Source: Candidatus Latescibacterota bacterium
GTDB taxonomy: Bacteria; Latescibacterota; UBA2968; GCA-2709665
Assembly (NCBI GenBank): GCA_965222075.1
Contig: OZ244937.1
Span: 5,123,891 to 5,187,890 of the forward strand
Direction of reading: 5' to 3'
Length of the DNA stretch: 64,000 nt
The translations under genes were made by a program, and so were the position numbers. Each line of letters begins with the position of its first letter. Within the stretch, counting starts at the first letter, position 1. Shown piece by piece: positions 3,439 to 26,022 of the stretch. The notes below the pieces were generated by a model that did not search any database, was not told the DNA's origin, and saw nothing but the letters and a program-made list of their open reading frames with translations.

Positions 3439-4473
3439 GTGACCGGAGAAATTGCAGGCAGAAAGCTTCTCTGCCTGGACATGATGGAAGAACCCTTCGC
3501 AGTGTCGGGCTTTGCCTGGCTGGATCAGGAACGGAGGTTCTGCCGGCTGCCAGTGGACGCTTTGCCTGACATGAGCGAGGCCGTCCGGACGCTGGCCTGG
3601 CACACCCCGGGCGGTATGGGTCGTTTCAGGACAGATTCCAGCACGATCGCCATCAAGGTGGAACTGCCGACAGTCGTTGATATGTCACACATGCCGCGGA
3701 CCGGAAATTCCGGATTCGACCTTTATCTGGGCGGTGGGAAAGAGAAGAGGTTCCTGAACACCGCCAGACCGCGCACAAATGAGCCGGTGTATGAGGCGCT
3801 TCTGGTCGATGGCCTGGATAGAGGCATGCGTGAGTGGACGCTGAATTTCCCGCTTTACAACGGCGTCAACCGGGTTCTGGTGGGCCTGGATGCAGACGCG
3901 GAAGTCGAACCGCCTTCGCCGTTCACAGTTGAGAAGCCGCTTCTCTTCTACGGATCGTCGATCACGCAGGGAGGCTGTGCGTCCCGGCCGGGGAACGCCT
4001 ACACCCACATCCTGGCGCGGTGGCTGGATGCGAACCTGGTCAACCTCGGATTCAGTGGGGGCGCGAAGGGGGAGCCGGGCATGGCCCGCCTGATTGCGAC
4101 GATGGACATGAGCGTCTTTATTATGGATTACGATTACAATGCGCCGTCGGCGGAGCATTTGGAGCAGACCCACGAGGCGTTCTTCCGGATTGTGAGAGAG
4201 GCCCGTCCCGAGCTTCCCGCTGTAATCGTTTCGAGTCCGTCAGTTGATACCAATCCATCACGCTGGGTGGAGAGACGGGAAATCGTTCGCAGGACGTACG
4301 AGAATGCCGTGAGACGGGGGGACAGCAAGGTCTGGTTTGTGGATGGGGAGACCCTGTTCGGCACAACCGATCGGGATGGCTGTACGGTTGACGGGTGCCA
4401 CCCGAACGACCTGGGGTTTTTGCGCATGGCCAAAGCGATTCGTTCGTCGGTTGAGGCCGCTCTGGATGGTTGA
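3439..4473 (+). CDS. SGNH/GDSL-family hydrolase
   Basis: SGNH blocks 'LLFYGSSITQGG', 'LGFSGG' and 'VDGCHPNDLG'. The track ORF starts at 2809 but overlaps the upstream gene. GTG 3439 follows GGGAGG (3424-3429); ATG 3481 is an alternative start. Confidence 0.7.
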   Translation: MTGEIAGRKLLCLDMMEEPFAVSGFAWLDQERRFCRLPVDALPDMSEAVRTLAWHTPGGMGRFRTDSSTIAIKVELPTVVDMSHMPRTGNSGFDLYLGGGKEKRFLNTARPRTNEPVYEALLVDGLDRGMREWTLNFPLYNGVNRVLVGLDADAEVEPPSPFTVEKPLLFYGSSITQGGCASRPGNAYTHILARWLDANLVNLGFSGGAKGEPGMARLIATMDMSVFIMDYDYNAPSAEHLEQTHEAFFRIVREARPELPAVIVSSPSVDTNPSRWVERREIVRRTYENAVRRGDSKVWFVDGETLFGTTDRDGCTVDGCHPNDLGFLRMAKAIRSSVEAALDG

Positions 4474-5888: not shown

Positions 5889-6953
5889 ATGAAAAAGCAC
5901 ACTTTTCGCGGCAGTCCCGCCGAGGTGGGCGGGGCCCAGGGCTCGATGAGCCCGGAAGCAGCCCGGGACTATCTGAAGTTCTGGCAGGCCCGTCCGCACG
6001 ATTTTGAGAATCCGTACTTCCGGAAGAACCTGGCCTTTATGCGGCGGGAGTTTCCGGATCTGATCGAGCAGATCGAGGCGTTTGGCGAGGCGGCCGGAAT
6101 GGATAGTTTCGAGCATGCGTACTACAGCCATGTGCTGTGGGCGGGACCCATGGAGGAGGCCTGTTCGACCCTGGGAATCCTGCTGGAAGAGGACGGACCG
6201 GCTATGTTGTCGACCAACGATGGGGGTACGGATACGGTGCCGGGGACGGTTTCCAATACCGTTGTCTCGATATTTCCTGACACAAAACCGCACGGCATGA
6301 TGGGGTTGGGCACTCAACGACAGGTCACCCTGGGGATGGCCGTAAACGATTCGGGACTGGCCGTCGGGGCCAATTCGGGGCATCGGAAGTTCAATTACGT
6401 ATCCAATCCCGAATGCGTGAACCTCTATTTCGTCGTCCACCTGCTGGCGCAGCACTGCGGCGATTGTGACGATGTCCGCCATTTTGTGGAACAGTATCGC
6501 ATTTCGGGGCAGAAGGGGATGAATCTGGTCACGGTTGACGCCGCGGGAAACATCCTGGGCCTGGAGCTGGAGTCGGAGAATGTCGCCATTTCAGAGGCGC
6601 AGGACGGGATGCTTCTGGAGGTCAATCACTGGCAGCATCCCAAACTCCGGAATCCATCCCGGGCTGCGAATCCCGATTTCTGGGACGGGTCCTACTACTA
6701 TAATTCCCAGGCGCGGGTCATGTATTTTGCGCACTACCGAAATGTGTTCGCACGAATGAAGACCATGCAGGACCTGGTTGATTTTTCGTTCGACGTCCAC
6801 GCGCCGGGGCGTATCCTGCAGATGCTGGATCTGAACGTGGGGAATCTGATCTCGTGCCAGGTGATGTTCGCGACCGTGAGGGACCGAAGCATGAGGCTGT
6901 ACCTGCATCCGATAGAGAAAGATGATTACGAGGAGTTCCGGTATCCACAGTGA
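5889..6953 (+). CDS. C45-family (acyl-CoA:6-APA acyltransferase-like) Ntn hydrolase, tentative
   Basis: ATG 5889 is preceded by AAGGAGG. 'EEACSTLGILL...STNDG' resembles the nucleophile-Cys region of C45 peptidases. Assigned from memory only. Confidence 0.5.
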   Translation: MKKHTFRGSPAEVGGAQGSMSPEAARDYLKFWQARPHDFENPYFRKNLAFMRREFPDLIEQIEAFGEAAGMDSFEHAYYSHVLWAGPMEEACSTLGILLEEDGPAMLSTNDGGTDTVPGTVSNTVVSIFPDTKPHGMMGLGTQRQVTLGMAVNDSGLAVGANSGHRKFNYVSNPECVNLYFVVHLLAQHCGDCDDVRHFVEQYRISGQKGMNLVTVDAAGNILGLELESENVAISEAQDGMLLEVNHWQHPKLRNPSRAANPDFWDGSYYYNSQARVMYFAHYRNVFARMKTMQDLVDFSFDVHAPGRILQMLDLNVGNLISCQVMFATVRDRSMRLYLHPIEKDDYEEFRYPQ

Positions 6954-7021
6954 TGTTCCGGTTGATACGAGATGACGAAACATCCGGCCCAGTTGCTGCG
7001 GACCGATCCGTGCCTGGGCTT

Positions 7022-7429
7022 TCAGACAAACGGATCAACGAGTTCTACACCGCTGGCTTCGAAATCGCGACGGTTTCGGGTTGCCAGCGGTAATCCGTGA
7101 GTCAGGGCGGTGGCGGCGATGAGGCTGTCCTTGGTCGGCATCGGTTTTCCGAGAGAACGGAGACGCGCCAGCAGTTCGGCCCAGCGCAATCCCGTCTCGA
7201 CATCCCACGGAATACAGTGAATGCGACGGGCGACCTCGTCGAACCAGCGTTCGAGCGCGCGACGCCGGTGCCCGGGTGGCAGCAGAAGGATCCCGAAGCG
7301 GATTTCTCCCAGGATCACGGGATCGATGGCCAGGTCGCGTTCGGTACGCGCCAGCCACTCGATCACCCTCGGATCCGGGCTCGGCTGGGTCGCCTCGCAC
7401 AGGACGTTGGCATCCACGAGACACATCAT
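7022..7429 (-). CDS. vapC: PIN-domain toxin VapC
   Basis: 'MMCLVDANVL...' PIN N-terminus plus 'LIAATALTHGLPLATRNRRDF'. The ATG at 7429 overlaps the antitoxin stop (ATGA). The track ORF extends to 7495, which is probably an over-extension. Confidence 0.8.
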   Translation of the reverse strand: MMCLVDANVLCEATQPSPDPRVIEWLARTERDLAIDPVILGEIRFGILLLPPGHRRRALERWFDEVARRIHCIPWDVETGLRWAELLARLRSLGKPMPTKDSLIAATALTHGLPLATRNRRDFEASGVELVDPFV

Positions 7430-7668
7430 GGTGGCCATCCGAGGGAGTCGGTAGACTCCGATTTGATCGGCACGAACCAGCCCTTCACAGGACACGCGAG
7501 GAGCGTATCCACCAGCCCCTGGTTCTTCGGGGGGTCGGCAACGACCAGGCGATATTCGCCTCTGTCCACCCGTTCTATATCAAACGATTGGCCAGGTTCA
7601 ATTTTGTCCTGATGGCGAAACGCGGCCGGGATGACAATCTGACCCTTGGATGAGAGGACTGTTTTCAT
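7426..7668 (-). CDS. vapB: AbrB/SpoVT(MazE)-fold antitoxin VapB
   Basis: 80-aa ORF 'MKTVLSSKGQIVIPAAFR...' is a typical SpoVT/AbrB swapped-hairpin N-terminus. It is translationally coupled to the PIN gene. Confidence 0.8.
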   Translation of the reverse strand: MKTVLSSKGQIVIPAAFRHQDKIEPGQSFDIERVDRGEYRLVVADPPKNQGLVDTLLACPVKGWFVPIKSESTDSLGWPP

Positions 7669-7698: not shown

Positions 7699-7944
7699 TT
7701 GTCAATACCCGATTTGCATGGTCGGCCCCGGGGGCCTGATGCGCCACGGCAGGCAACCGTCGCGAGCGTGGCGCGCCAGGCGTTCGAGCGTCTTGATGCC
7801 GACGGCGTGATTGACCTGCAACGGGACGGCAGGGCGACGGACGGCCACTATCGGATCGAACTTGCCTCTCTGCCACACCGTGCAAAGGCCGGAGATTACA
7901 TCGTGATGGCGCTGAGAGCCTTCATGGAGGAGGAGATGAAATGA
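7699..7944 (+). CDS. Small hypothetical ORF coupled to hsdM
   Basis: 81-aa ORF with a TTG start. Its stop overlaps the hsdM ATG (ATGA at 7941-7944). No motif recognised, and coding status is uncertain. Confidence 0.3.
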   Translation: MSIPDLHGRPRGPDAPRQATVASVARQAFERLDADGVIDLQRDGRATDGHYRIELASLPHRAKAGDYIVMALRAFMEEEMK

Positions 7945-10133
7945 GTCCTGACGCAACCGGGTCCAGGGGCAGCAATCCGGACCGGGTCCCGCCGGCAAGT
8001 GGCCGTGGAGCGGGTGTGAGCAGCCTGAACATCAGCAACTTCATCTGGAGTATCGCCGATGACGTGCTGCGGGACGTCTATGTGCGGGGCAAGTACCGGG
8101 ATGTTATCCTGCCGATGACGGTTATCCGTCGCCTGGATGCGGTTCTGGAGCCAACGAAAGACGCGGTCCTCCAGATGAAGACCCAGTTGGACGGGGCGGG
8201 CGTGACCAACCAGGATGCGGCGCTGCGCCAGGCATCCGGCGAGGCCTTCTACAACGCCTCGCCTTTCCGGCTGCGCGATCTGACCTCCCGTGCCAGGCAA
8301 CAACAGTTGAGGGCCGACTTCGAGGCGTATCTCGACGGTTTCTCACCCAACGTTCAGGAGGTGCTGGAGAAGTTCAAGTTTCGCAATCAGATTCCGACGC
8401 TGGTCGATGCGGATGTGCTCGGGTTCCTGCTGGAGAAGTTCCTGGACCGCTCGGTCAACCTCAGCCCCAAACCCGTGTTGAATGCAGACGGGTCCGTGCG
8501 TGTGGAGGGTCTGGACAACCATGGGATGGGTACGGTCTTCGAAGAGCTGATTCGGCGTTTCAACGAGGAAAACAACGAGGAGGCCGGCGAGCATTTCACG
8601 CCGCGCGACGTCGTGCAGCTGATGGCGCGGCTGATTTTCATGCCGGTTGCCGATGAGGTCCGGTCGGGCACCTACCTGGTGTACGACGGCGCTTGTGGCA
8701 CCGGCGGGATGCTGACGGTGGCCGAAGAGACGCTGACCCAACTCGCCACCGAACACGGCAAGGAGGTCGCGGTCCACCTGTACGGCCAGGAGGTCAACCC
8801 TGAGACCTACGCCATCAGCAAGGCCGACCTTATCCTCAAGGGCGAGGGCGTGGAAGCCGACAATATTCAGTACGGCTCGACCCTCTCCGCCGATGCCTTC
8901 CCGTCCCGCGAGTTCGATTTCATGCTCTCCAATCCGCCTTATGGCAAGAGCTGGAAGAGCGACCTGGAACGCATGGGCGGTAAGAGAGAGATGCGCGACC
9001 CGCGCTTTCTGATCGAGCACGATGGCGAGCCAGAGTACTCGCTGGTCACCCGTTCCAGCGACGGCCAGATGCTGTTTCTGGCCAATATGTTGAGCAAGAT
9101 GAAGCAGGATACGCCGCTGGGCAGCCGCATCGCGGAGGTCCACAACGGCAGTTCGCTGTTCACGGGCGACGCCGGGCAGGGCGAGAGCAATATCCGGCGC
9201 TGGATTATCGAGAGCGACTATCTGGAGGCGATTGTGGCGCTGCCGCTCAATATGTTCTACAATACCGGCATTGCGACTTATATCTGGGTGTTGACGAATC
9301 GCAAACCGGCGCATCGCCGGGGCAAGGTGCAGCTCATCGACGCCACGCAGTGGTCCAGGCCGCTGCGCAAGAATCTCGGCAATAAGAACTGCGAGCTGTC
9401 GGACGAGGATGTCCGGCGTATCTGCGATACTTTCCTCGCGTTTGAGGAGAGCGAGCAGTCGAAGATTTTCCCCAACGAGGCGTTCGGGTATTGGAAGGTC
9501 ACGGTCGAGCGACCGTTGCGGCTCACCGTCGATTTGTCACCGGACCGTCGCGAGGGATTCCGAGCCGCCTGTTGTGAGGCAAAGGAAGAGCCGCTTGCGG
9601 ACGCTATTGATCGGGTGGCGACAGTGCTGGGCGCCGGGCCTCACCGCGACTTCAACCGATTCATGGAAGCCGTTGTGGCGAATGCCTCCGCGCATGGCGT
9701 CAAGTTGACGGCCAGGCGGAAGAACCTGCTGCAGATGGCGCTGGCATCCCGCGACGAGGCCGCTGAGCCAGTCATCAAGAAGAGCCACCGGCCGGACGCG
9801 GTGGAACCGGACCCGATCCGCGGTCTGGCCGAAGCTACTGTGGATGGCGAGCGCCGCGTCATCGAATACGAGCCTGACGGTGAGTTGCGCGATACCGAGC
9901 AGGTGCCGCTGCTCGACGAGGGCGGTATCGAGGGTTTTCTGCGCCGCGAGGTGCTGCCCTATGCCGCCGATGCGTGGTACGACCCGGGCAGCGTCAGGGT
10001 GGGGTACGAGGTCAGTTTCACGCGCTATTTTTACAAGCCGCAGCCGCTGCGCTCGCTGGCGGAGATCCGGGCCGATATTCTGGCGGTGGAGCAGGAGACG
10101 GAGGGGTTGCTGGGGGAGATTATCGGCGGGTAG
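7941..10133 (+). CDS. hsdM: Type I restriction-modification system, methyltransferase subunit M
   Basis: 'NFIWSIADDVLRDVY..YRDVILPMTVIRRLD' HsdM N-domain. SAM motif 'VYDGACGTGGML' and catalytic 'LSNPPYGKSW' are present. Confidence 0.92.
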   Translation: MSPDATGSRGSNPDRVPPASGRGAGVSSLNISNFIWSIADDVLRDVYVRGKYRDVILPMTVIRRLDAVLEPTKDAVLQMKTQLDGAGVTNQDAALRQASGEAFYNASPFRLRDLTSRARQQQLRADFEAYLDGFSPNVQEVLEKFKFRNQIPTLVDADVLGFLLEKFLDRSVNLSPKPVLNADGSVRVEGLDNHGMGTVFEELIRRFNEENNEEAGEHFTPRDVVQLMARLIFMPVADEVRSGTYLVYDGACGTGGMLTVAEETLTQLATEHGKEVAVHLYGQEVNPETYAISKADLILKGEGVEADNIQYGSTLSADAFPSREFDFMLSNPPYGKSWKSDLERMGGKREMRDPRFLIEHDGEPEYSLVTRSSDGQMLFLANMLSKMKQDTPLGSRIAEVHNGSSLFTGDAGQGESNIRRWIIESDYLEAIVALPLNMFYNTGIATYIWVLTNRKPAHRRGKVQLIDATQWSRPLRKNLGNKNCELSDEDVRRICDTFLAFEESEQSKIFPNEAFGYWKVTVERPLRLTVDLSPDRREGFRAACCEAKEEPLADAIDRVATVLGAGPHRDFNRFMEAVVANASAHGVKLTARRKNLLQMALASRDEAAEPVIKKSHRPDAVEPDPIRGLAEATVDGERRVIEYEPDGELRDTEQVPLLDEGGIEGFLRREVLPYAADAWYDPGSVRVGYEVSFTRYFYKPQPLRSLAEIRADILAVEQETEGLLGEIIGG

Positions 10134-10281
10134 CGCTAAGGGGCGTTTTTATTGAACGCAGCCCCTTTACAAGGACAGGGTTCTTTCCCATATTAAACAC
10201 AGCCTTTAACAAGGCCGCAGTCATGTGCTATGGTGAACACAGGCTTTACTATGAGCCCGATAACCGCACATACGAAGGTGT

Positions 10282-10451
10282 TGCCCTGCGCACCGGACGC
10301 CTGGTATGACCCGGGCAGCGTCAGGGTGGGGTACGAGGTCAGTTTCACGCGCTATTTTTACAAGCCGCAGCCGCTGCGCTCGCTGGCGGAGATCCGGGCC
10401 GATATTCTGGCGCTGGAGCAGAAAACGGAAGGGTCGCTGGATGAGTCTTAA
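10282..10451 (+). pseudogene. Relic copy 2 of the hsdM 3' end
   Basis: 10308-10412 is identical by eye (105/105) to 9981-10085 of hsdM. It encodes '...AWYDPGSVRVGYEVSFTRYFYKPQPLRSLAEIRADILALEQ' and has no upstream gene body. Confidence 0.85.
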
Positions 10452-10532
10452 CATCAACACCGAGAGGTGTGAGAGCTTCCAGTTGAGGACGATCTGAAAG
10501 AGTGCTTCGATGGTTGTGATAGAGAGGAGAAA

Positions 10533-10760
10533 ATGATGATGTCTACCATGTCCGAGATCATTTTTGAGGTCACTGAGGACGAAGTCGACGGCGGGTACTC
10601 AGCAAATGCGCTGGGGTATGGTATCCACACAGAAGGTGAGACGCTCGAAGAGCTTCGCCGGAATGTGAAAGAAGCCGTCGAGTGCTACTTTGATGAGACA
10701 ATGATTCGACCCGGGTTGATTCGTCTTCACTTCGTCCGCGATGAAGTCCTTGCGCTATGA
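10533..10760 (+). CDS. hicB: HicB-like antitoxin
   Basis: 75-aa ORF 'IIFEVTEDEVDGGYSANALGYGIHTEGETLEELRRNVKEAVECYF' has a HicB N-domain pattern. ATGA overlap with the next ORF. Confidence 0.7.
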   Translation: MMMSTMSEIIFEVTEDEVDGGYSANALGYGIHTEGETLEELRRNVKEAVECYFDETMIRPGLIRLHFVRDEVLAL

Positions 10761-10999
10761 AACTGCCGCGTAATTTGAGTGGGGCTGATTTACAGAAATC
10801 GCTTCGGCGTTTTGGTTATGAGCCCACCAGACAGCGCGGTTCGCACGTACGGATAACCACACAGATCAACGGTGAACATCATGAAGTTATCCCTCAGCAT
10901 AATCCCATCAGGACAAAAACACTGTCGAGCATTTTGAAAAGCATCGCGTCGCATCATGGCTTGAGTGTCGAAGCACTGCTCAATGAACTTGGTTTGTAG
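10757..10999 (+). CDS. hicA: HicA-like mRNA interferase toxin
   Basis: 'LSGADLQKSLRRFGYEPTRQRGSHVRITT...VIPQHNPIRTKTLSSILK' matches the YcfA/HicA signature (GSH, P.H). Confidence 0.75.
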   Translation: MKLPRNLSGADLQKSLRRFGYEPTRQRGSHVRITTQINGEHHEVIPQHNPIRTKTLSSILKSIASHHGLSVEALLNELGL

Positions 11000-11094
11000 A
11001 TCCCGTTCGAGCTACTCTGCTCCGTGCTTGTGCTGCACAAGGTCAACCGCCAACCTCCCCCTCTACCTCGCCTACGGGCCCTCCGGCGTCGAGT

Positions 11095-11327
11095 GGCTGG
11101 GCGAAGGCCGCATTGAGGGTTTCCTGCGCCGCGAGGTGCTGCCCTATGCCGCCGATGCCTGGTACGACCCGGGTAGCGTCAGGACCGGGTACGAGATCAG
11201 CTTCACGCGGTACTTTTACAAACCGCAGCCGCTGCGCTCGCTGGCGGAGATCCAGGCCGATATTCTGGCGCTGGAGCGGGAGACCGAGAGGCTGTTGGGG
11301 GAGATTGTCGGGGACGGCGGGTTGTGA
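11095..11327 (+). pseudogene. Relic copy 3 of the hsdM 3' end
   Basis: Encodes 'GRIEGFLRREVLPYAADAWYDPGSVRTGYEISFTRYFYKPQPLRSLAEIQADILALERETERLLGEIVG', colinear with hsdM 9905-10133. No methyltransferase body lies upstream. Confidence 0.85.
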
Positions 11328-11447: not shown

Positions 11448-12629
11448 GTGAATAAGGATCCGTCCGTCATGCGGCGCGGAGAAATCGGTAGCTACGAGGT
11501 TACGAGCATCGGCGGTGAACGCGTTCGCGCCTTTGTGCCAGCACCGTTGCCGCCGCAACCCGCCCTGATTCTGGACGGCTCGCTGCAACAGGTGCTGGAA
11601 TCGGCGGTGCTTGCCCTGGGCCGCCTTGACGGCGTCTCGACGCTTCTGCCGGACGAGGCGCTTTTTCTGTATGCCTACGTGCGCAAGGAAGCGGTGCTTT
11701 CCTCCCAGATCGAGGGGACGCAGTCTTCGTTGTCTGATCTCTTGCTCTTTGAACTTAAGGAAGCGCCCGGGGCTCCGCTTGACGACGTGCGCCAGGTTTC
11801 GAACTATGTGGACGCGCTCAACCACGGTTTGCGTCGCCTGCGGGAGGGTTTCCCGCTGTCGAATCGCCTGATCCGCGAGATACACGGCGTGCTGTTGTCG
11901 GGCGGCCGGGACAGTGTCAAGACGCCCGGTGAATTTCGGCGCTCGCAGAACTGGATTGGAGGAACCCGGCCCGGCAATGCCGTTTTTGTACCGCCGCCGC
12001 ACACTGCTGTGCCCGAATGCATGGCGGCGTTTGAGCGATTTCTCCACGCCGAGGATATGCCCGTGCTGCTGCGGGCGGGGCTCGCGCACGTGCAGTTCGA
12101 GACGATTCACCCCTTCCTTGACGGCAATGGGCGCGTGGGTCGGTTGCTCATTACGCTGCTGCTGTGCGACGCCGACGTGCTGCGCCAGCCGCTCCTGTAT
12201 CTGAGCCTGTACTTCAAGCAACACAGGAACACCTACTACGATTTGCTGAATCATGTGCGTTGTACCGGCGAGTGGGAAGCGTGGCTCGCCTTCTTTCTGG
12301 AAGGGGTGAGACTGACAGCCGAGGGCGCGGTTTTGACCGCCCGGCGCCTCTCCCGGATGTTTGAGGATGACCGGAACCGGGTCGAGGCGGCCGCGGGCCG
12401 CAGGACCGGGTCGGTGCTGCGCGTACACGAGGCCCTCAAGTCGCAGCCGATTCTATCGCTGCCCGCGGCGTGCCGTGGTACCAAACTGTCCTTTCAGGCA
12501 GCCGCGTCGGCCATGGAACTGCTCGTCACGCAGGGGATTGCGCGGGAGATCACCGGGAAGCGGCGTAACCGGCTGTTCGTTTATGACCGGTATCTTTCCG
12601 TTCTGAACGAGGGAGCCGAGGCGCCGTGA
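11448..12629 (+). CDS. fic: Fic-family protein (AMPylase-type) with N-terminal inhibitory motif
   Basis: Canonical 'HPFLDGNGRVGR' Fic motif and an upstream 'SSQIEGT' ([ST]xxxE[GN]) inhibitory helix. GTG start; ATG 11469 is an alternative. Confidence 0.9.
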   Translation: MNKDPSVMRRGEIGSYEVTSIGGERVRAFVPAPLPPQPALILDGSLQQVLESAVLALGRLDGVSTLLPDEALFLYAYVRKEAVLSSQIEGTQSSLSDLLLFELKEAPGAPLDDVRQVSNYVDALNHGLRRLREGFPLSNRLIREIHGVLLSGGRDSVKTPGEFRRSQNWIGGTRPGNAVFVPPPHTAVPECMAAFERFLHAEDMPVLLRAGLAHVQFETIHPFLDGNGRVGRLLITLLLCDADVLRQPLLYLSLYFKQHRNTYYDLLNHVRCTGEWEAWLAFFLEGVRLTAEGAVLTARRLSRMFEDDRNRVEAAAGRRTGSVLRVHEALKSQPILSLPAACRGTKLSFQAAASAMELLVTQGIAREITGKRRNRLFVYDRYLSVLNEGAEAP

Positions 12630-12710: not shown

Positions 12711-12753
12711 ATCCGCAAACCCGGAATTTTGAGACAGCTTCTGAGGAATTTAG

Positions 12754-13077
12754 ATGGCAATGAAAAACTTAGATCAACATATTGAGATTACCCCTGGTAT
12801 ATCAGGTGGAAAGCCCCGTATTGCCGGACATCGAATTACAGTGGAAAACATCGTCATCTGGCATGAGCACATGGGCAAGAGTGCGGATGAAATAGCCACT
12901 GAATACGATTTGACACTGGCGGATGTGTATGCGGCATTGGCCTACTATTTCGATCACCGCGCTGAGATCAACCAATCGCTGGAAGAGCGTAAAGTATTTG
13001 TAAAAACTCTACGCCAGCAGACTTTTTCAAAGCTTTCTGCAAAGCTTCAAGAAAAGACGCAACGTGGCGAAGATTAA
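12754..13077 (+). CDS. DUF433-family antitoxin-like protein (copy 1)
   Basis: 'IEITPGISGGKPRIAGHRITVENIVIWHEHMGKSADEIATEYDLTLADVYAALAYY' is the typical DUF433 pattern. It overlaps the next ORF. Confidence 0.8.
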   Translation: MAMKNLDQHIEITPGISGGKPRIAGHRITVENIVIWHEHMGKSADEIATEYDLTLADVYAALAYYFDHRAEINQSLEERKVFVKTLRQQTFSKLSAKLQEKTQRGED

Positions 13078-13393
13078 GTTCTACACGGATGAGCATGTCT
13101 CAAAAGCCGTGGTGATGGGCCTCCGCCGAAGGGGCGTGGATGTATTGACTGTTCCAGAAACGGGGACACTGGGAGTATCTGACGAAGCACATTTGAGAAG
13201 GGCGCGGGAAGAGGGACGCGTCATCTTTACTCAGGATGATGATTTTCTGCGCTTGGCCGCAGCAGGTGCAGACCATGCAGGGATTGTTTATACAACGCAA
13301 GAAACTACGACCGGCGAGATCATTTCTGGTTTGATGTTGATCCATTGGGTATTGGAAGCGGACGAGATGATGGGGCATGTAGAGTATCTTTGA
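13064..13393 (+). CDS. DUF5615-family PIN-like protein (putative toxin partner of DUF433)
   Basis: 'IKFYTDEHVSKAVVMGLRRRGVDVLTV...VIFTQDDDFLRL'. GTG start overlaps the DUF433 3' end by 14 nt. Confidence 0.75.
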   Translation: MAKIKFYTDEHVSKAVVMGLRRRGVDVLTVPETGTLGVSDEAHLRRAREEGRVIFTQDDDFLRLAAAGADHAGIVYTTQETTTGEIISGLMLIHWVLEADEMMGHVEYL

Positions 13394-13480
13394 GACCTGA
13401 GAGTTGAATTCAGCGGCGAAGCGGTCCGCAACGTCGCTCGAACATTGATCTGGGGGATGCGACCTCTGGGACAATCGGAA

Positions 13481-13828
13481 ATGCTAAACCGGAACTTGAA
13501 AGCGGCCGAAGCTCTTCGCCCGGGCCAGGAAATGGACCCTGATGGCATCGCGGTGCCTGAGCTGGAGAAGGGCGAGGCATACTTCCACAAGGAAAGAGAA
13601 GCATTGCGCGATGTCCGGGACGCCTTGCAGCGGACAGGTGGCGCAGAAGCACACGGAGTTGAGGTCTTCGAGGAATTGGACCGCCTGGACAAGCTGTTTA
13701 AGTATCTCATTGGGTCGTTCCAAGAGCTTCGATGGACCATAATGATCAACGACGGGTCGCTCACTCCGAGCACAGGAGGAACATGCGCCAGCGGAGCAGA
13801 GTTTATGGCGTCTATGGAAAATCTATAG
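13481..13828 (+). CDS. Hypothetical protein
   Basis: ORF beginning MLNRNLKAAE. No motif recognised. A competing antisense ORF lies at 13288-13899. Confidence 0.3.
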   Translation: MLNRNLKAAEALRPGQEMDPDGIAVPELEKGEAYFHKEREALRDVRDALQRTGGAEAHGVEVFEELDRLDKLFKYLIGSFQELRWTIMINDGSLTPSTGGTCASGAEFMASMENL

Positions 13829-13958
13829 GACATGTGCCCGAGACAGATGCGAATTACCGGGTTCGTAACGCCGAGCCGCAGGTTCGCCAGAATGGTCAAG
13901 CGTGCGGATGGCTTTCTGCAAAAGCCTCAAGACACAAAGTCTTCAGCAGGAGAATACG

Positions 13959-14238
13959 ATGATGCGACCCATCGCGGTGGAAGCGCGAGACGGCTACCGC
14001 ATCTGGCTGCGCTATTCGGATGGTGCCGCCGGTGAGGTAGATCTGTCGCATCTGGCCGGGCGCGGCGTATTCGCGGCCTGGGGCGACCGTACTTTCTTCG
14101 AGGCCGTGCGACTTGAGGATCATGGTACCATAGCTTGGGGTGAGGGAGCTTTGCCCCGATGCCCTTTATATGCAGCTTGTCGGCAAGTCTGTTGCGGAAG
14201 TGATGCCGGGTGTCCAGATTCCGGTTGAAAATGCCTGA
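13959..14238 (+). pseudogene. DUF2442-family gene with an apparent frameshift near 14150
   Basis: 'MMRPIAVEARDGYRIWLRYSDGAAGEVDLSHL...FFEAVRLEDHGTIAWGEG' continues in another frame as 'LCPDALYMQLVGKSVAEVMPGVQIPVENA*'. AGGAG precedes ATG 13959. Confidence 0.6.
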
Positions 14239-14377
14239 AATCTGTCGGTTTTACGGGATTGTCATTCGAATGTATTTCAACGACCACGCGCCGGCACATT
14301 TCCACACACAACGCCTGGAATCGCCCGGCAAGATCGCCCCACTGGAAAGTCGAATAGAGGAATTTAGATGGCAATGA
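14231..14377 (+). pseudogene. DUF4160-like N-terminal fragment, truncated at a repeat junction
   Basis: 'MPEICRFYGIVIRMYFNDHAPAHFH' is the DUF4160 signature. The 48-codon ORF runs into the duplicated DUF433 segment and stops. Confidence 0.5.
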
Positions 14378-14673
14378 AAAACTTAGATCAACATATTGAG
14401 ATTACCCCTGGTGTATCAGGTGGAAAGCCTCGTATTGCCGGACATCGAATTACAGTGGAAAACATCGTCATCTGGCATGAGCACATGGGCAAGAGTGCGG
14501 ATGAAATAGCCACTGAATACGATTTGACACTGGCGGATGTGTATGCGGCATTGGCCTACTATTTCGATCACCGCGCTGAGATCAACCGATCGCTGGAAGA
14601 GCGTAAAGTATTTGTAAAAACCCTACGCCAGCAGACCTTTTCAAAGGCGACTTGGAAAAATCTGGATCGATAA
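14368..14673 (+). CDS. DUF433-family protein (copy 2, orphan duplicate)
   Basis: 14357-14646 repeats 12743-13032 with about 5 mismatches by eye. The C-terminus diverges and no PIN-like partner follows. Confidence 0.75.
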   Translation: MAMKNLDQHIEITPGVSGGKPRIAGHRITVENIVIWHEHMGKSADEIATEYDLTLADVYAALAYYFDHRAEINRSLEERKVFVKTLRQQTFSKATWKNLDR

Positions 14674-14688
14674 TCATGGTGTTGGGTA

Positions 14689-14707
14689 GGGAGACGGAGA
14701 GGCTGTT
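14689..14707 (+). repeat. Possible short fourth relic of the hsdM 3' end
   Basis: GGGAGACGGAGAGGCTGTT matches GGGAGACCGAGAGGCTGTT (in 11278-11300) at 18/19. The match is short, so this is tentative. Confidence 0.35.
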
Positions 14708-14733
14708 AAATCAAATCATAACAGGAGTCTAAG

Positions 14734-15216
14734 ATGAAACTGAAAAAATTGTTCAAGAATTTCAACTTGGAAAAAATAAAATTTGGTCCAAGTGTAGCAG
14801 CAGCGGAGATAGCCTTCAAGCCGGCTGACAAAAATGCCGCTTGGGAGTTGTATATCGAGATGTTGACCCGGATCGTCACTCAACCCCTGCCTTCTGCAGC
14901 GGGGGACGAAAAGACGGCTCTGGACAGCATTTATGCACTTTTCGGAATTACCCGCGAGATTCTGCGTCGACATGGGCGTGGTACAATACAGTTCAGCAAG
15001 GTTGCGATACCAGTGCTGAACCAAGTGGTGCGGCCTTTTACCGCAAAGTGGCACAAGGAGAGTATAGCAGGAGCTTTTGATTGCGAAAGCAAACGAAAGG
15101 AATTTCGTGGAGAACTGGAAATCCTGCAAAGTGAATTGCGAAACTATAATTCCATGTTGGCGAGTATTGCCAGCGTGGAAGATTTGACTAATTTAGAACG
15201 AACAGCACCCGAGTAA
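14734..15216 (+). CDS. Hypothetical protein, gene 1 of the five-gene cassette
   Basis: 160-aa ORF. AGGAG lies 7 nt upstream of the ATG. No recognisable domain. AT-rich. Confidence 0.6.
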   Translation: MKLKKLFKNFNLEKIKFGPSVAAAEIAFKPADKNAAWELYIEMLTRIVTQPLPSAAGDEKTALDSIYALFGITREILRRHGRGTIQFSKVAIPVLNQVVRPFTAKWHKESIAGAFDCESKRKEFRGELEILQSELRNYNSMLASIASVEDLTNLERTAPE

Positions 15217-15247
15217 GGTAAATGGGTCAGGAAAGGAGCCCAACGTC

Positions 15248-15727
15248 ATGGCTGATGAAACGAAAAACATCTTCATAAGTCACATCCATGAAGATGATAA
15301 AGGCCTCGGCAAGCTCAAGAGTCTGCTGAAGGACAACGGGATGACCATCCGGGACTATTCAATCAACGCGGATAATCCCAACAACGCCCATTCAGAAAGC
15401 TACATCAAGTCCGAGATTCTTGCACCGCGCATTCGACAATCAAGTACGTTGGCTGTTTATATTTCGCCCGAAACTAAAGGCAGCCAGTGGGTGGACTGGG
15501 AGATTGAGTATGCCCATAAACAAGACAAACGAATTGTAGGAGTTTGGGCGCATGGAGAAAGCGGGTGCGAAGTCCCGGAAGCATTGGATAACTACGCCGA
15601 CGCTGTAGTTGGTTGGACGGGTAATCGCATCATTGACGCGATAAACGGAAAAATCGATGGTTGGGAAAATCCGGACGGTACAAAAAGCACGCCGCGAGGA
15701 GACATCAGCCGGTATAGCTGTCGTTAG
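15248..15727 (+). CDS. TIR-like (ThsB/DUF1863-type) domain protein, gene 2 of the cassette
   Basis: 'KNIFISHIHEDDKGLGKLKSLL' and 'GSQWVDWEIEYA' match the bacterial TIR-like/ThsB pattern. AAAGGAG lies upstream. Confidence 0.7.
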   Translation: MADETKNIFISHIHEDDKGLGKLKSLLKDNGMTIRDYSINADNPNNAHSESYIKSEILAPRIRQSSTLAVYISPETKGSQWVDWEIEYAHKQDKRIVGVWAHGESGCEVPEALDNYADAVVGWTGNRIIDAINGKIDGWENPDGTKSTPRGDISRYSCR

Positions 15728-15737
15728 AAACGTCAAT

Positions 15738-16346
15738 ATGAAACTATTCTCCTATGTCGTCGCTCGTGACTATGGTTTTGCGCCCAACCCTTTTTTTGGA
15801 ATATGTACATTAGCCACCTGCAAACCAAGAGTTCGGAAGGCAGCCTCCATAGGAGACTGGATTATCGGCACGGGCAGCAGCCAAAATGACAGACGAGGCT
15901 ATCTTGTTTATGCCATGTGCGTAACGGAAACAATGACATTTAATGAGTATTGGGAAGACGAGCGGTTCCAAAGGAAAAAGCCGAACATGAGGGGAAGCAT
16001 GAAGCAGGCATTCGGCGACAACATCTACTTTCAGAATGATGCTGGTCAGTGGCAGCAGCAGGATTCTCATCACAGTTATGAGGACGGTTCGCCCAACCCG
16101 TACAATATTTGCCACGATACACAGACGGACAGAGTCCTGCTCAGCAAGGACTACGTATATTGGGGTGGCCCAGGACCTGAAATTCCTACAAGGTTCAGAG
16201 ACTACGAGGGATGCGATATTTGCGCTAAGCGCAACCACAAATGCCGGTTTCCACAAGGATTGGTCAGGGAATTTGCTACGTGGTTGCGGTCTTTGGACGC
16301 GAGGGGTTATCTTGGAAAACCTTTAGGTTGGAGCAAAACACCATGA
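15738..16346 (+). CDS. Nmad2-like (nucleotide-modification-associated domain 2) protein, gene 3 of the cassette
   Basis: N-terminus 'MKLFSYVVARDYGFAPNPFFGICTLATCKPRVRKAASIGDWIIGTGS' matches my recollection of the Nmad2 signature. ATG 15738 is chosen because the track start at 15657 overlaps the TIR gene. Confidence 0.6.
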   Translation: MKLFSYVVARDYGFAPNPFFGICTLATCKPRVRKAASIGDWIIGTGSSQNDRRGYLVYAMCVTETMTFNEYWEDERFQRKKPNMRGSMKQAFGDNIYFQNDAGQWQQQDSHHSYEDGSPNPYNICHDTQTDRVLLSKDYVYWGGPGPEIPTRFRDYEGCDICAKRNHKCRFPQGLVREFATWLRSLDARGYLGKPLGWSKTP

Positions 16347-17518
16347 CCAGGAGTCTGTCATCCATGGATCGGCGAAACAAAGCGACTTCTGAGGGCACAA
16401 TTCTCCTGCGCGATTACATGCGAGAAATCGAGCCCACCGATAAACTTCCTCAGGACAATCTGCAACCGGTTTTGATGGGGCTGTTTGGCGAGGTTGGCAG
16501 TATCATGGCAACCGCTAAGAAGCACCTCCGGGAAAAAACAGCATATACTGGATACCAGCAGGTGGTGGAGGAAGAATTCGGCGATGCGCTTTGGTACTTC
16601 ACTACATTGTGCCGGCGTCTTGGCATTGGCGTTGACACCATCCTCTCCAAAGCGGTGAATCAAGACAAATACAGCAAGAGCATCGCTGCAAGCGACCTTC
16701 TGGACAGCCCGGTTTCTCATATCTCGTCGGTCAGTGCATTGCCTGATCTTGATAAGACACTCCTGAATCTGGGACAGGCTACGGCGGCATTGCTTGGCAT
16801 CAAGAGCTTGGATGAACAGACTCACGATTTGCTACAAACTTTCTCGGATCGCTACTTGCAGGCACTTCAAGCGGCAAACGTAAGTTTTTCAAAGATTGCT
16901 CATATGAACATAGAGAAAACGTGTGGACGTTTTCTTGAACCCAATGCGTCAGAGTTACCAACGTTCGACGACAAATTCCCGGATGAGGAACGGCTTCCCC
17001 GGCATTTCGAGATCAAAGTCACGCAACGAAAAAACGGGCAAAGTTATCTGCAATGGAATGGTGTATTTATCGGCGACCCGCTCACGGATAATATCCTTGA
17101 CCCGGATGGCTACCGATTCCATGATGTGTTTCATTTTACACATGCTGCCATTCTTCACTGGTCTCCTACCTTTCGCGCCTTGATAAAGCATAAACGCAAG
17201 AGTGATCCGAAGTTGGATGAGGCTGAGGATGGTGGCAGAGCGAAAGTCGTTGAGGAAGGACTTACCGCGTGGATATTTTCATGCGCCAAACATCTCAATT
17301 TCTTTCAGGGGCAGAATAGCGTCTCCTTTGACTTGCTAAAGACCGTGCAGCAGTTCGTGCAGGGATACGAAGTGGAAAAATGTCCTCTTAAGCTATGGGA
17401 ACGGGCTATACTGAAAGGATATGAGGTTTTCAGACTGGTACGGGATAACAACGGTGGGATCGTGATTGGAAATCGCGAGACTCGTACCATCGAGTACAAG
17501 TCAATTGATGGAGAATAG
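16343..17518 (+). CDS. MazG-like nucleoside-triphosphate pyrophosphohydrolase-fold protein with a C-terminal extension, gene 4 of the cassette
   Basis: 'GLFGEVGSIMATAKKHLRE...VEEEFGDALWYFTTLCRRLGI' is the MazG EExx(E/D) helix pair. ATG 16343 overlaps the upstream stop (ATGA). Confidence 0.7.
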   Translation: MTRSLSSMDRRNKATSEGTILLRDYMREIEPTDKLPQDNLQPVLMGLFGEVGSIMATAKKHLREKTAYTGYQQVVEEEFGDALWYFTTLCRRLGIGVDTILSKAVNQDKYSKSIAASDLLDSPVSHISSVSALPDLDKTLLNLGQATAALLGIKSLDEQTHDLLQTFSDRYLQALQAANVSFSKIAHMNIEKTCGRFLEPNASELPTFDDKFPDEERLPRHFEIKVTQRKNGQSYLQWNGVFIGDPLTDNILDPDGYRFHDVFHFTHAAILHWSPTFRALIKHKRKSDPKLDEAEDGGRAKVVEEGLTAWIFSCAKHLNFFQGQNSVSFDLLKTVQQFVQGYEVEKCPLKLWERAILKGYEVFRLVRDNNGGIVIGNRETRTIEYKSIDGE

Positions 17519-17521
17519 CGC

Positions 17522-24660: not shown

Positions 24661-24720
24661 GTGACGACTGACACCAGCAAAAGGGGCTTGAGCAATTTCA
24701 TCTGTCCGATGACTCGGAAA
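24661..24720 (+). repeat. Second, more degraded hsdR 5' relic
   Basis: GTGACGACTGACACCAGCAAAAGGGGCTTGAG... reads 'VTTDTSKRGLSNFIC', parallel to 'MTTDTSEKGLESLIC'. Confidence 0.5.
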
Positions 24721-24762
24721 CGCTCGACGCGAGGGATGAATTTTCCGCAATGGAGATAGTTG

Positions 24763-26022
24763 ATGATTACGCTGATTGAAGCCCTGAACTACCGCTGTTT
24801 ACGGTATGTGCAGAGACCTCTGAACCCGTTTCATGCCCTGGTCGGCCCGAATGCGTCGGGTAAGACAACCTTTTTGGACGTTATCGGTTTTCTGCGTGAT
24901 CTGGTATCCGAGGGGTTGGACACGGCCCTGTCGGCGCGTGCCTTGAATCCTGAAGAGCTTCTCTTTCGGCGGCAAGGGGACGGGCTGGAACTGGCGGTCG
25001 AGGCACGGATTCCCGAGGCGCTGCGCAAATTGACGTCAAAACCGGATTTGGACACGGTAAGGTACGAGGTGGCTATCGGATTTGAGGAAACACAGCGCCA
25101 GTTCGAGTTCAAGGCCGAGCGCCTGTTATTGAAAAAGGCAAAGGATTTAGGGCCGCTACAGCGCTCATTATTCCCCATGTCGCCCAGCGCGCCGGGTTCG
25201 TTGCTGACCAATATCCGCAAACAAGACAATAAGCTCGTGATCAACAAAGTATCAGGTGGGAATGACAATTTCTACAGCGAGACCTATAATCGTCCGGGCA
25301 AGGGCTGGGCGCCTTCGATCAAACTGGGACCGCAAAGATCGGCCCTGGGCCACCTTCTGGTAGATGAAAGCGCTTTTCCCGTGGCGATATGGTTTCAGAA
25401 ATATCTGATCACCGGAGTGCAGAGGTTTGTGCTCAACAGCCTTGCGATCAAGCGTCCCAGTTCTCCAACGCGGGCTGTGGGTTTTTTGCCGGATGGGTCA
25501 AATCTGCCATGGGTTGTCGCTCGTCTGCGCCACAAAGACCAGGAACGACATCGCGCCTGGATCAAGCACCTGCAAACCGCTCTGCCCGATCTGGTGGACA
25601 TCACAACTTTCGAGCGCCCGGAAGATAAGCATTGTTATATGATCTACGAGTATGAGGAAGGACTGAAAGTGCCTTCGTGGCTGGTTTCCGATGGCACACT
25701 TCGACTTACGGCACTCACCTTGCCCGCATATCTGACCGATCTTCAAGGTATTTACCTGATAGAGGAACCGGAGAATGGGGTGCATCCGAGGGCGGTGTCA
25801 ACCGTGTACGATTCCCTTTCTTCTATGTATGAAGCCCAGGTGTTGTTAGCGACCCATTCGCCGGTAGTACTGAGTACAGCCAGAATGGATGATGTGCTTT
25901 GCTTTGCCAAAGATGACGATGGTTCAACAGACATTGTTCTCGGTTCCGAACATCCCTTGCTTCAAAAGTGGCAGGGCGAGGTCGATCTTGGCACATTGCT
26001 TGCATCGGGAGTTTTGGGATGA
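24763..26022 (+). CDS. AAA15/ABC-type ATPase
   Basis: Walker A 'GPNASGKTT', signature-like 'SDGTLRL', Walker B 'IYLIEEPENGVHP' and H-loop 'LATHSP'. The track start is TTG 24760. Confidence 0.8.
   Translation: MITLIEALNYRCLRYVQRPLNPFHALVGPNASGKTTFLDVIGFLRDLVSEGLDTALSARALNPEELLFRRQGDGLELAVEARIPEALRKLTSKPDLDTVRYEVAIGFEETQRQFEFKAERLLLKKAKDLGPLQRSLFPMSPSAPGSLLTNIRKQDNKLVINKVSGGNDNFYSETYNRPGKGWAPSIKLGPQRSALGHLLVDESAFPVAIWFQKYLITGVQRFVLNSLAIKRPSSPTRAVGFLPDGSNLPWVVARLRHKDQERHRAWIKHLQTALPDLVDITTFERPEDKHCYMIYEYEEGLKVPSWLVSDGTLRLTALTLPAYLTDLQGIYLIEEPENGVHPRAVSTVYDSLSSMYEAQVLLATHSPVVLSTARMDDVLCFAKDDDGSTDIVLGSEHPLLQKWQGEVDLGTLLASGVLG

Follow-up and report, generated by a model that had tools for sequence, protein, structure and literature searches.

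Arrays of orphan gene ends are best known from loci of polymorphic toxins. At rhs, cdiA and type VI secretion system (T6SS) effector-immunity loci, orphan 3' ends accumulate by "C-terminal displacement" (Kirchberger et al., 2017, PMC5361080, and the papers on rhs and contact-dependent inhibition cited there). The model for the T6SS, rhs and cdi arrays combines homology in the conserved upstream part of the gene with an illegitimate joint, i.e., homology-facilitated illegitimate recombination (PMC5361080, citing that work). A second line of research has revealed defence systems that are embedded in operons of Type I restriction-modification (RM), BREX, DISARM and Hma systems (Payne et al., bioRxiv 10.1101/2024.01.29.577857). 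An island of enteropathogenic Escherichia coli contains DarTG2 within an RM locus, and the hsdS-hsdR site there has been called a potential recombination hotspot (PMC12255303). Embedding within Type I RM and similar operons has been recognised recently, and it is widely used as a heuristic for discovery. A term search of the text of these two sources retrieved no passage on the mechanism by which embedded genes enter or are exchanged and no mention of orphan hsd ends as slot dividers, and the word "recombination" was not found in the text of the preprint. Here we analyse a Type I RM operon of Candidatus Latescibacterota bacterium, situated in a window of 64,000 nucleotides (contig OZ244937.1, positions 5,123,891 to 5,187,890, of assembly GCA_965222075.1), in which the 3' end of the methyltransferase gene hsdM is repeated downstream of the intact gene.

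On balance, these copies appear to be orphan gene ends, the scars of repeated recombination that has stacked intervals from other hsd operons, each reaching from an hsdM 3' end across cargo genes to an hsdS 5' end (hsdM3'-cargo-hsdS5'). The orphan ends are probably also the homology handles of the recombination that reshuffles the nested genes.

Copies of the hsdM 3' end and their joints

The operon contains intact hsdM, hsdS and hsdR genes on the plus strand, and the gaps between them (about 10 kb from hsdM to hsdS and about 9 kb from hsdS to hsdR) are filled with other genes (Table 1). It is thus a Type I RM operon with embedded genes on the same strand. The window was compared with itself for direct and inverted repeats, and a DNA profile built from 79 native hsdM 3' ends was run over it with nhmmer. 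Both approaches confirmed the three direct copies that had been noticed in an initial annotation of the sequence. The self-comparison yielded a direct repeat family with three members (9911-10126, 10238-10453 and 11096-11311) and a fourth member of 31 nt (14677-14707). The profile matched, on the plus strand only, at 9862-10130 (E 1e-75), 10276-10445 (E 2e-43), 11098-11314 (E 5e-57) and 14651-14725 (E 7e-4), and with a tail-only profile copy 4 reached an E value of 9e-6 in a search space of 8.8 kb. Given this profile support the fourth copy, suspected initially from a trace of 19 nt, is real, but its length is about 76 nt; its stop codon is situated 1 nt upstream of the next open reading frame (ORF).

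All extra copies are on the same strand, 5'-truncated and colinear with the 3' end of hsdM, and every copy has a stop codon of its own, different from the others. The reading frames of copies c2, c3 and c5 are open to the native stop. The copies differ from each other by 10-25%, with repeat identities of 75-91%. Copy 2 is followed by HicBA, which lies between copies 2 and 3 as annotated, copy 3 by SoFic and toxin-antitoxin pairs, and copy 4 by ThsB-Nmad2-MazG. A full-length gene and several same-strand, 5'-truncated 3' copies with their own downstream genes constitute the layout of an orphan array. The copies start at variable points, 84 to 20 codons before the stop (profile positions 51 to 212), and their left partners vary as well, comprising the hsdS 5' end, the leader described below, truncated DUF433, the end of Fic, truncated RhuM and truncated GmrSD.

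Copies 1 and 2 are identical over exactly 105 nt (9981-10085 and 10308-10412), as had been stated, and the sequences on both sides diverge, with mismatches at 9 of 30 nt before and at 5 of 27 nt after the tract (14 of 57 in all). The tract represents a conversion tract and shows that the repeats exchange sequence.

For comparison we used 80 species-level hsd loci, out of more than 589, and further related contigs, all labelled with L-numbers. They changed the view of the 148-bp segment between copies 1 and 2, which had been taken for an "empty" slot. This leader is 91% identical to L004 12047-12135, which is situated after the hsdM stop and before DUF2442/DUF4160, and 89% identical to L083 6536-6687. 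In L083 and in L084 it follows another orphan copy and precedes a DUF2442/DUF4160 cassette. The leader is the conserved front of that cassette, and it is ended here by the joint to copy 2. It was also considered as a structured site, a terminator or a promoter, and these possibilities were rejected (fold z -0.88, promoter and terminator matches at chance level).

Three types of features had escaped the initial annotation, namely an hsdS 5' remnant at copy 3, a repeat of 290 nt in DUF433, and remnants of hsdS (3' end) and hsdR (5' end) in the second gap. The sequence directly upstream of copy 3 reads NLPLYLAYGPSGVEWLGE, which is the start of hsdS; the resident hsdS begins with MAPNLKPYSSYKPSGIPWLGD at 20202. 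In this joint, named J1, about 17 codons of hsdS are fused in frame to GRIEGFLRREV of hsdM, and the hsdS ATG is missing in the window copy. The same joint is present in L004 (twice), L082, L083/L084, L086 and L090, with different cargo on either side, and HicBA is tightly linked to it. At least four further hsdS5'::hsdM3' joints exist beside J1 (J2, J3, L081_cZ and L041). A protein search with the fusion peptide, which recovers in-frame fusions only, retrieved 1795 short proteins. Among these matches are at least four in-frame joints of the HsdS N-terminus and the HsdM C-terminus, i.e., J1 (WLG[DE] joined to GGIEGF), J2 (SGV joined to PLLEEGG), J3 (WLGDVP joined to D..LRDTEQ) and a variant in P0092, as well as fusions with the HsdM N-terminus or truncated GmrSD as left partner. 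Several in-frame fusions have retained the hsdS start codon (P0005, P0009, P0011, P0027). At the DNA level, out-of-frame hsdS::hsdM joints were found in L081_cZ and L041, along with joints to truncated DUF433, the Fic end and truncated RhuM; L082 carries a DUF433'::hsdM-tail joint related to that at copy 4 of the window. The hsdS5'::hsdM3' fusion in front of copy 3 is the joint that would be expected if an hsdM3'-cargo-hsdS5' interval had been closed to a circle or duplicated in tandem.

The protein search also recovered three clusters of "mini-HsdM" proteins (P0021, P0025, P0028), in which the first ~60 residues of HsdM are fused to the last ~75-80. They are internal deletions, and their break point is in the same region (codons -79 to -72) as that of the hsdS fusions.

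With '::' for a non-homologous joint, the array can be read as [hsdM..c1-leader]::[c2-HicBA-hsdS5']::[c3-SoFic-DUF433/PIN-X-DUF2442/DUF4160-DUF433']::[c4-160 aa-ThsB-Nmad2-MazG_C-UDG-DUF1883/TIR-hsdS], and the same pattern continues onward to hsdR.

Turnover among strains, recurrence and sources of the copies

Exact-protein look-ups with HicA, ThsB and P0001 retrieved related contigs, and those with hsdM, Fic and DUF5615 returned no record. Five contigs of the same population (L081-L084 and L086), with flanks that are 97-99% identical, contain 2-6 hsdM 3' copies in differing arrays and with differing cargo. Close relatives of the window thus differ in array content, and the cargo at the joints is polymorphic among strain-level relatives. 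The arrangement c1-leader-c2-HicBA-c3-Fic recurs with 98.4% identity in the independently assembled contig L083, which follows the window up to 12636 and then continues with a short hsdM fragment and new cargo. Further on, L083 has an hsdS5'::hsdM3' copy with a full leader, DUF2442, another copy, GmrSD and hsdS. The order in L086 is Fic, short fragment, ThsB, DUF2442, fusion copy, DUF4062 and hsdS. In L084 a unit of HicBA and a fusion copy is inserted between two copies of ORF X, and the order X-DUF2442-DUF4160-DUF433-PIN is a circular permutation of DUF433-PIN-X-DUF2442-DUF4160-DUF433' in the window. Several synteny break points are only 0-30 nt away from an hsdM fragment (12636, 13046, 14225 and 14646). 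The native hsdM carries a patch as well, since 9690-10110 of the window is about 87% identical to L081 9210-9625, compared to 98-99% elsewhere.

A short allelic replacement patch of the native hsdM was also observed at 9500-9790 of the window in comparison with L083. The hsdS gene varies, too: the first target-recognition domain differs among sister strains, and hsdS of L084 contains an internal direct repeat of 519 nt (6294-6812 and 6942-7460, 96% identical) that makes its halves nearly alike.

The initial annotation had proposed that cassettes are lost again by recombination between the repeats. Copy 2 is indeed absent from L081, L082 and L086, and this is a deletion and not the ancestral state, because the leader runs natively through ~10280 in other copies. 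However, this only clean allele without copy 2 was generated by a deletion of 267 bp (10214-10480; joint TTTAACAAG to TTGAGG, with 3-4 nt of microhomology), the end points of which lie in the leader and after the copy-2 stop, and thus outside of the repeats. For this allele, repeat-repeat recombination was therefore rejected in favor of illegitimate deletion with microhomology.

The hsdM family spans several phyla, with 66-80% amino acid (aa) identity in Chloroflexota, Latescibacterota, Nitrospira and archaea. Six of the 80 species-level loci (L004, L025, L037, L041, L046 and L080) have 1-3 extra hsdM 3' copies, invariably on the gene strand and within the hsdM-hsdS gap, and their cargo includes GmrSD, ThsB-TIR, PIN, HEPN/Ymh, a nuclease and RhuM. 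Old copies decay, as is seen from frameshifts and stops in L025 and L004_c2. In L088 the order is hsdM-cargo-hsdS5'::hsdM3' directly followed by hsdS, so that the last slot is without cargo; this would be the expected product of the addition of a cargo-bearing interval to a cargo-less operon. A plasmid collection contained 768 records with this hsdM tail, nearly all of them with the tail at a single place. Relatives with a tail identity of ~66-67% are located on plasmids of Klebsiella and Enterobacter. The one partial match that was inspected, in a Sphaerotilus plasmid, was rejected as a stacked copy, because its hsdM is truncated by a Tn3-family transposon. In this locus (L091, Sphaerotilus sulfidivorans plasmid NZ_CP035709.1, 4002-12718) the last 54 hsdM codons are followed by a PDDEXK nuclease gene, hsdS and hsdR, and the Tn3-family truncation represents a different route to an orphan hsdM end.

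Which sequences gave rise to the copies? The differences between them are mostly synonymous, with ratios of non-synonymous to synonymous changes (dN/dS) of 0.05-0.25, also when fragments are compared with fragments; for example, c3 and L083_c5 differ by 12 synonymous and 6 non-synonymous changes (ratio 0.14). Therefore, the copies have diverged within working genes or have been refreshed from working genes, and have not decayed in place. This points to other functional alleles as the origin of the orphan copies, and refreshment by gene conversion would give the same signal. Paralogous copies share 82-90% identity with each other, a distance similar to that from copies in a Latescibacterota genome, and between sister strains orthologous copies reach 97-100% (copy 3 in L081-L084: 97-99.6%).

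The cargo of the window has counterparts elsewhere. Copy 2 with HicBA is colinear with the native full-length hsdM-HicBA of L054, and HicBA directly follows a full-length hsdM also in L014, L021 and L079, in the latter with hsdS behind it. Fic follows hsdM in L046 (hsdM..Fic-hsdS) and in L087, and a native hsdM-leader-DUF2442/DUF4160 order is present in L004. The module downstream of copy 4 (160 aa, ThsB, Nmad2, MazG_C) is led in L087 by a complete hsdS5'::hsdM3' copy of 76 codons. Taken together, each adjacency of 3' end and cargo in the window is found as a native hsdM-cargo adjacency in other species. The distinct alleles and the native adjacencies support the serial import from other hsd loci that the initial annotation had named as one possibility.

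How the array may have formed

A conservation profile (pairwise column identity) was calculated over 71 hsdM and 64 hsdS genes. The last ~270 nt of hsdM form an island with values of 0.57-0.77, compared to 0.17-0.59 in the preceding ~330 nt. In hsdS, the first ~75 nt have values of 0.52-0.66, which then fall to 0.13-0.39. These two islands are the only conserved DNA that flanks the variable hsdM-hsdS gap, and we infer that they serve as homology arms. The hsdS::hsdM joints are situated just inside the island borders, at hsdS codons 14-23 and in most cases at hsdM codons -84 to -70, and this position fits a guidance by homology.

We propose the following mechanism. Pairing in the conserved ends of hsdM and hsdS would bring in a foreign interval. 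A second homologous crossover would result in plain replacement without a scar, and homology on one side combined with an illegitimate joint at the homology border would result in addition and leave a displaced, 5'-truncated hsdM end. Afterwards gene conversion, unequal or duplicative recombination and short-homology deletion would remodel repeats and dividers, with a different array in each strain as the outcome. For the reaction itself, one-sided homology with an illegitimate joint, ends-in (Campbell) insertion of a circle, and unequal sister exchange are all conceivable, and the order of events is likewise a proposal. Both a circularised interval inserted by the Campbell route and an unequal exchange between sisters would yield the same product, which makes them inseparable by sequence alone.

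Two earlier suggestions can thus be upheld in part. Homology-guided exchange agrees with the 105-nt tract and with the junctions at the island borders, but the variable 5' limits and the varied left partners argue against fixed attachment sites. The hsdS5'::hsdM3' joint and the circular permutation in L084 fit a Campbell-type integration of a circle, but they fit a tandem duplication as well, and no circle was seen.

Several observations weigh against stacking by import guided by hsd homology. Several break points between strains are situated away from any hsd remnant (10505, 11458 and 13847), and cargo is flanked as well by direct repeats that do not stem from hsd genes (290, 372, 218 and 115 nt); one of them is the DUF433 repeat (12743-13032 and 14357-14646, 98% identical). 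Therefore, a general duplicative process that does not use hsd homology is active, too. The one clean allele that differs at copy 2 was formed by illegitimate deletion. As a sufficient cause of the recurrent fusion site, extended microhomology between the two islands was rejected, and in 64 loci the best 18-mer matches of the hsdS patch to the final 900 nt of hsdM were scattered, with 9.5 of 18 matching positions at the junction site and 8.4 in the background. Because J1 is common to many diverged copies, most of the stacking may represent the spread of one founder "divider" rather than repeated additions, and it is uncertain how many of the additions were independent. The resident hsdM is the closest sequence to the copies in terms of DNA identity (88-91%), and thus donors cannot be named. 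The exact J1 DNA pattern, which does match L004 and L081-L084, had no match in JGI metagenome contigs or IMG/VR, and this result gives no evidence for carriage by phages. Among the assembled sequences, no circle, tandem dimer or event in progress was observed.

The most serious alternative is an origin purely in situ, by one or more tandem duplications of the hsdM3'-cargo-hsdS5' interval with slots that later diverged or were replaced, and without the import of foreign 3' ends as such. The hsdS5'::hsdM3' fusion is exactly the novel joint of a tandem duplication, and the hsdS remnant of L081 cZ is 95% identical to L081's own hsdS start. The cyclic order of the cargo extends over more than one turn in the window and in L084, direct duplications of 290, 372 and 218 nt are present, and the copies are closest to the resident hsdM. 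However, the cargo of the slots is unrelated and in each case natively adjacent to hsdM in other species, and the joints of hsdM ends to truncated DUF433, RhuM and GmrSD (DUF433'::m, RhuM'::m, GmrSD'::m) are not those of an interval duplication. In addition, the strong synonymous bias between fragments would not be expected in non-coding duplicates without constant conversion from functional alleles. We therefore regard this alternative as rather unlikely.

A more far-reaching version of the stacking scenario is that the fusions are maintained as "slot dividers", i.e., as back-to-back homology arms that would turn the RM operon into an integrase-free, RecA-driven cassette array open to any related hsdM-cargo-hsdS interval. 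It would extend to the hsdS3'/hsdR5' counterparts, and in a stronger form the in-frame fusion peptide would be expressed and would modulate the assembly of HsdM and HsdS. If true, it would provide defence systems with a general, homology-coded way into other defence systems. At present it is a speculation to which we give a small chance.

Could the fusions instead be selected functional modules? They might encode small proteins (HsdS residues 1-17 plus the C-terminal ~72 residues of HsdM) with an effect on the assembly of the methyltransferase, or translated linker ORFs that maintain the expression of downstream cargo and hsdS. In agreement with this, several fusions are in frame with the hsdS start codon (P0005, P0009, P0011, P0027), c2, c3 and c5 remain open as reading frames up to the native stop, the dN/dS values of the fragments are low, and the joints cluster narrowly on both sides. 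However, the protein search was biased to in-frame fusions, and at the DNA level one third of the joint types is in frame (J1), as by chance, so that selection for in-frame fusions is unsupported once the ascertainment bias is taken into account. Copy 3 of the window has lost the hsdS ATG, L025 and L004_c2 have decayed, and low dN/dS values are equally well explained by import or conversion from functional genes. A selected function of the fusions is thus quite improbable.

Direct repeats of gene 3' ends around foreign DNA typify integrative elements, and the tandem accretion of such elements is known. Integron-like or integrase-driven elements that target the hsdM 3' end and bring along a replacement copy, and that are now mostly degenerate, could have left this classic signature. 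A Pfam scan of 30 window ORFs (6 kb to 37 kb) revealed no integrase, resolvase or other recombinase, nor was a recombinase present among the called genes of related arrays, and the only mobility genes of the locus are DDE transposases of insertion sequence (IS) elements that interrupt cargo. All repeats within the arrays are direct according to self-comparison of the arrays, and no attC-like inverted repeats flank a cassette (the longest inverted pair has 34 nt with 71% complementarity). The 5' limits of the repeats, at -84 to -20 codons, share no common core, and the repeats are diverged alleles and not identical att sites. Site-specific insertion is therefore very improbable. An assembly artefact by mis-joined or expanded repeats has a negligible chance, although the relatives stem from long-read metagenome assemblies with frameshifts (e.g., split hsdM calls in L081 and L086), because the copies are 10-25% diverged and differ in their flanks, independent contigs and samples show the same arrangement with 98-99% identity, and analogous arrays exist in unrelated genomes.

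Embedded genes, the second gap and comparison with known systems

The features of the locus are compiled in Table 1. Matches in PADLOC among the embedded genes comprise SoFic (7e-117), ThsB (8e-63), HEC-01A (5e-40) and a DarG-like protein (3e-53), and Pfam identified the defence or toxin-antitoxin families HicAB, DUF433/DUF5615, DUF2442/DUF4160 and SLFN/AlbA_2. The embedded genes would accordingly be known or candidate members of defence or toxin-antitoxin families.

Table 1. Features of the hsd locus in the window.
Feature	Position	Strand	Evidence and remarks
hsdM, intact	7941-10133	+	730 aa; Pfam HsdM_N + N6_Mtase
Copy 1, conserved 3' block of hsdM (last ~270 nt)	9862-10133	+	Profile match 9862-10130, E 1e-75; conservation profile
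Leader (formerly "empty" segment)	10134-10271	+	After hsdM stop; ended by joint to copy 2
Copy 2	10272-10451	+	Last ~57 codons of a different hsdM allele, own TAA stop
HicB	10533-10760	+	Pfam
HicA	10757-10999	+	Pfam; toxin-antitoxin cassette with HicB
hsdS 5' remnant (~17 codons)	11052-11105	+	tblastn against real HsdS N-terminus E 1e-4; HMM match; joint type J1
Copy 3	11096-11327	+	Last ~72 codons of another hsdM allele, own stop
Fic-domain protein, SoFic defence match	11448-12629	+	Pfam Fic_N + Fic; PADLOC SoFic 7e-117
Cargo block, five ORFs	12743-14356	+	Pfam
DUF433	12754-13077	+	Pfam; in cargo block
DUF5615/PIN-like	13064-13393	+	Pfam; in cargo block
ORF X	13445-13828	+	In cargo block
DUF2442	13902-14228	+	Pfam; in cargo block
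DUF4160	14210-14377	+	Pfam; in cargo block
Second DUF433 copy, 3'-truncated	14357-14646	+	98% identical to 12743-13032; joined to hsdM remnant
Copy 4, remnant	14651-14732	+	Last ~25 codons of an hsdM allele including stop 14730-14732
Low-GC cargo module	14734-20190	+	Pfam, PADLOC; GC 0.47-0.50
hsdS	20202-21539	+	Pfam Methylase_S; first ~75 nt = conserved 5' island
Orphan hsdS 3' end	21949-22114	+	Repeat comparison; tblastn E 4e-6
Orphan hsdR 5' start	23859-23957	+	33 codons, 79% aa identity, ATG kept; tblastn E 2e-13
Weaker orphan hsdR 5' start	24661-24705	+	15 codons; tblastn E 0.01
hsdR	30332-33382	+	1016 aa; Pfam HSDR_N, ResIII, SWI2_SNF2

In the hsdS-hsdR gap, the first 57 nt of the orphan hsdS 3' end (21949-22005) are 93% identical to 21466-21522, and then it has its own longer tail and stop; a truncated PIN gene precedes it and an SLFN/AlbA_2 gene follows. 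Together with the hsdR 5' remnants, it indicates that the same process has been at work in this gap.

The low-GC module of the first gap encodes a 160-aa protein of no assigned family, a ThsB-like TIR protein, Nmad2, MazG_C, a UDG-like protein and DUF1883-TIR. The first five of these form a unit that recurs in hsd operons (window 14734-18226, L087 9288-12066, L085 15-3508), in which the TIR protein is the only PADLOC match; this unit is a candidate for a defence system that targets nucleotides. A perfect tandem repeat with a period of 56 nt (18272-18426, ~2.75 copies, 100% identical) separates the UDG-like gene from DUF1883 and reads repeatedly SSSGNPHQAILIRQ on the minus strand. The DUF1883-TIR gene (18409-20190) is split by an IS5-family element (18938-19753), and the sister contig L085 has an intact version of it without the IS (267 aa, 3610-4413), with hsdS immediately behind. 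In the second gap, a HEC-01A ATPase (24760-26022, PADLOC 5e-40) and a weak HEC-01B match (27506-28099) look like a defence pair that was split by an IS, as an IS4-family transposase gene (26080-27405) lies between them on the opposite strand. The protein encoded at 28320-29063 matches only the C-terminal part of DarG (3e-53), with no DarT partner detected adjacent to it, and it is followed by an HTH + ImmA/IrrE (RmrA-like) protein just upstream of hsdR.

Orphan ends would represent a physical record of how embedded genes enter, stack and are exchanged, and they point to a unit of transfer that runs from the 3' island of hsdM to the 5' island of hsdS. A dedicated recombinase would not be needed, and arrays turn over among strains of one population. 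The orphan hsdM, hsdS and hsdR ends also offer a simple sequence signature to delimit cargo slots and to find new defence genes. The formation of the arrays is open to testing by donor-DNA experiments and long-read population surveys.

Several known systems share some features with this locus. In hsdS shufflons, inverted repeats of hsdS target-recognition domains are flipped by a site-specific recombinase, which changes specificity (PMC7672463). Here, too, partial copies of Type I RM genes beside the operon recombine with it, but the repeats are direct, stem mostly from hsdM and frame cargo, and neither inverted partial hsdS copies nor an invertase are present. The locus resembles integron arrays in that small promoterless cassettes lie on one strand behind a fixed gene, vary among strains and are separated by a repeated element. 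However, it has no IntI-type tyrosine recombinase, no attI, and no attC or structured inverted repeats at cassette ends, and its dividers are coding pieces with variable limits. As in integrative islands at the 3' ends of genes and tRNA genes, direct 3'-end repeats bracket foreign DNA and the gene stays intact. In contrast to these islands there is no integrase and no fixed att core common to the repeats; the repeats are long and diverged, always reach the stop and have variable 5' limits, and cassettes are as small as 0.6 kb. For the tandem lpl paralogues of Staphylococcus aureus, an evolving unit has been described that comprises the 3' portion of an ORF, the spacer behind it and the 5' portion of the following ORF (PMC2568036). 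That unit likewise reaches from inside one gene to inside the next, but there tandem paralogues recombine together, whereas here two different conserved genes, hsdM and hsdS, frame unrelated cargo.

The embedded defence systems introduced above are similar in gene content, with SoFic, a ThsB-like TIR protein, HEC-01 and toxin-antitoxin genes nested among same-strand hsdM, hsdS and hsdR. Searches of the literature for truncated, partial or duplicated hsdM and for genes between hsdM and hsdS yielded no description of this architecture, nor of orphan hsdM, hsdS and hsdR ends as dividers of embedded cargo. The greatest similarity is to the rhs, cdi and T6SS arrays. In both cases a full-length gene is followed by same-strand, 5'-truncated 3' copies, each with partner genes, the copies match alleles of other strains, the content of the array varies by strain, and the same cause has been proposed. 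The differences concern the pieces that are displaced. At rhs, cdi and T6SS loci the displaced end is a variable toxin domain and the cargo is its immunity gene, which gives an obvious selective reason for retention. At the hsd locus, in contrast, what is displaced is a conserved methyltransferase end that is not known to function by itself, and the cargo consists of unrelated defence and toxin-antitoxin genes. Furthermore, the 5' start of the following gene (hsdS or hsdR) is often included in the joints, which makes the unit a complete interval between genes. The closest known architecture is thus the array of displaced orphan ends at polymorphic-toxin loci, and it is extended here to restriction-modification operons.

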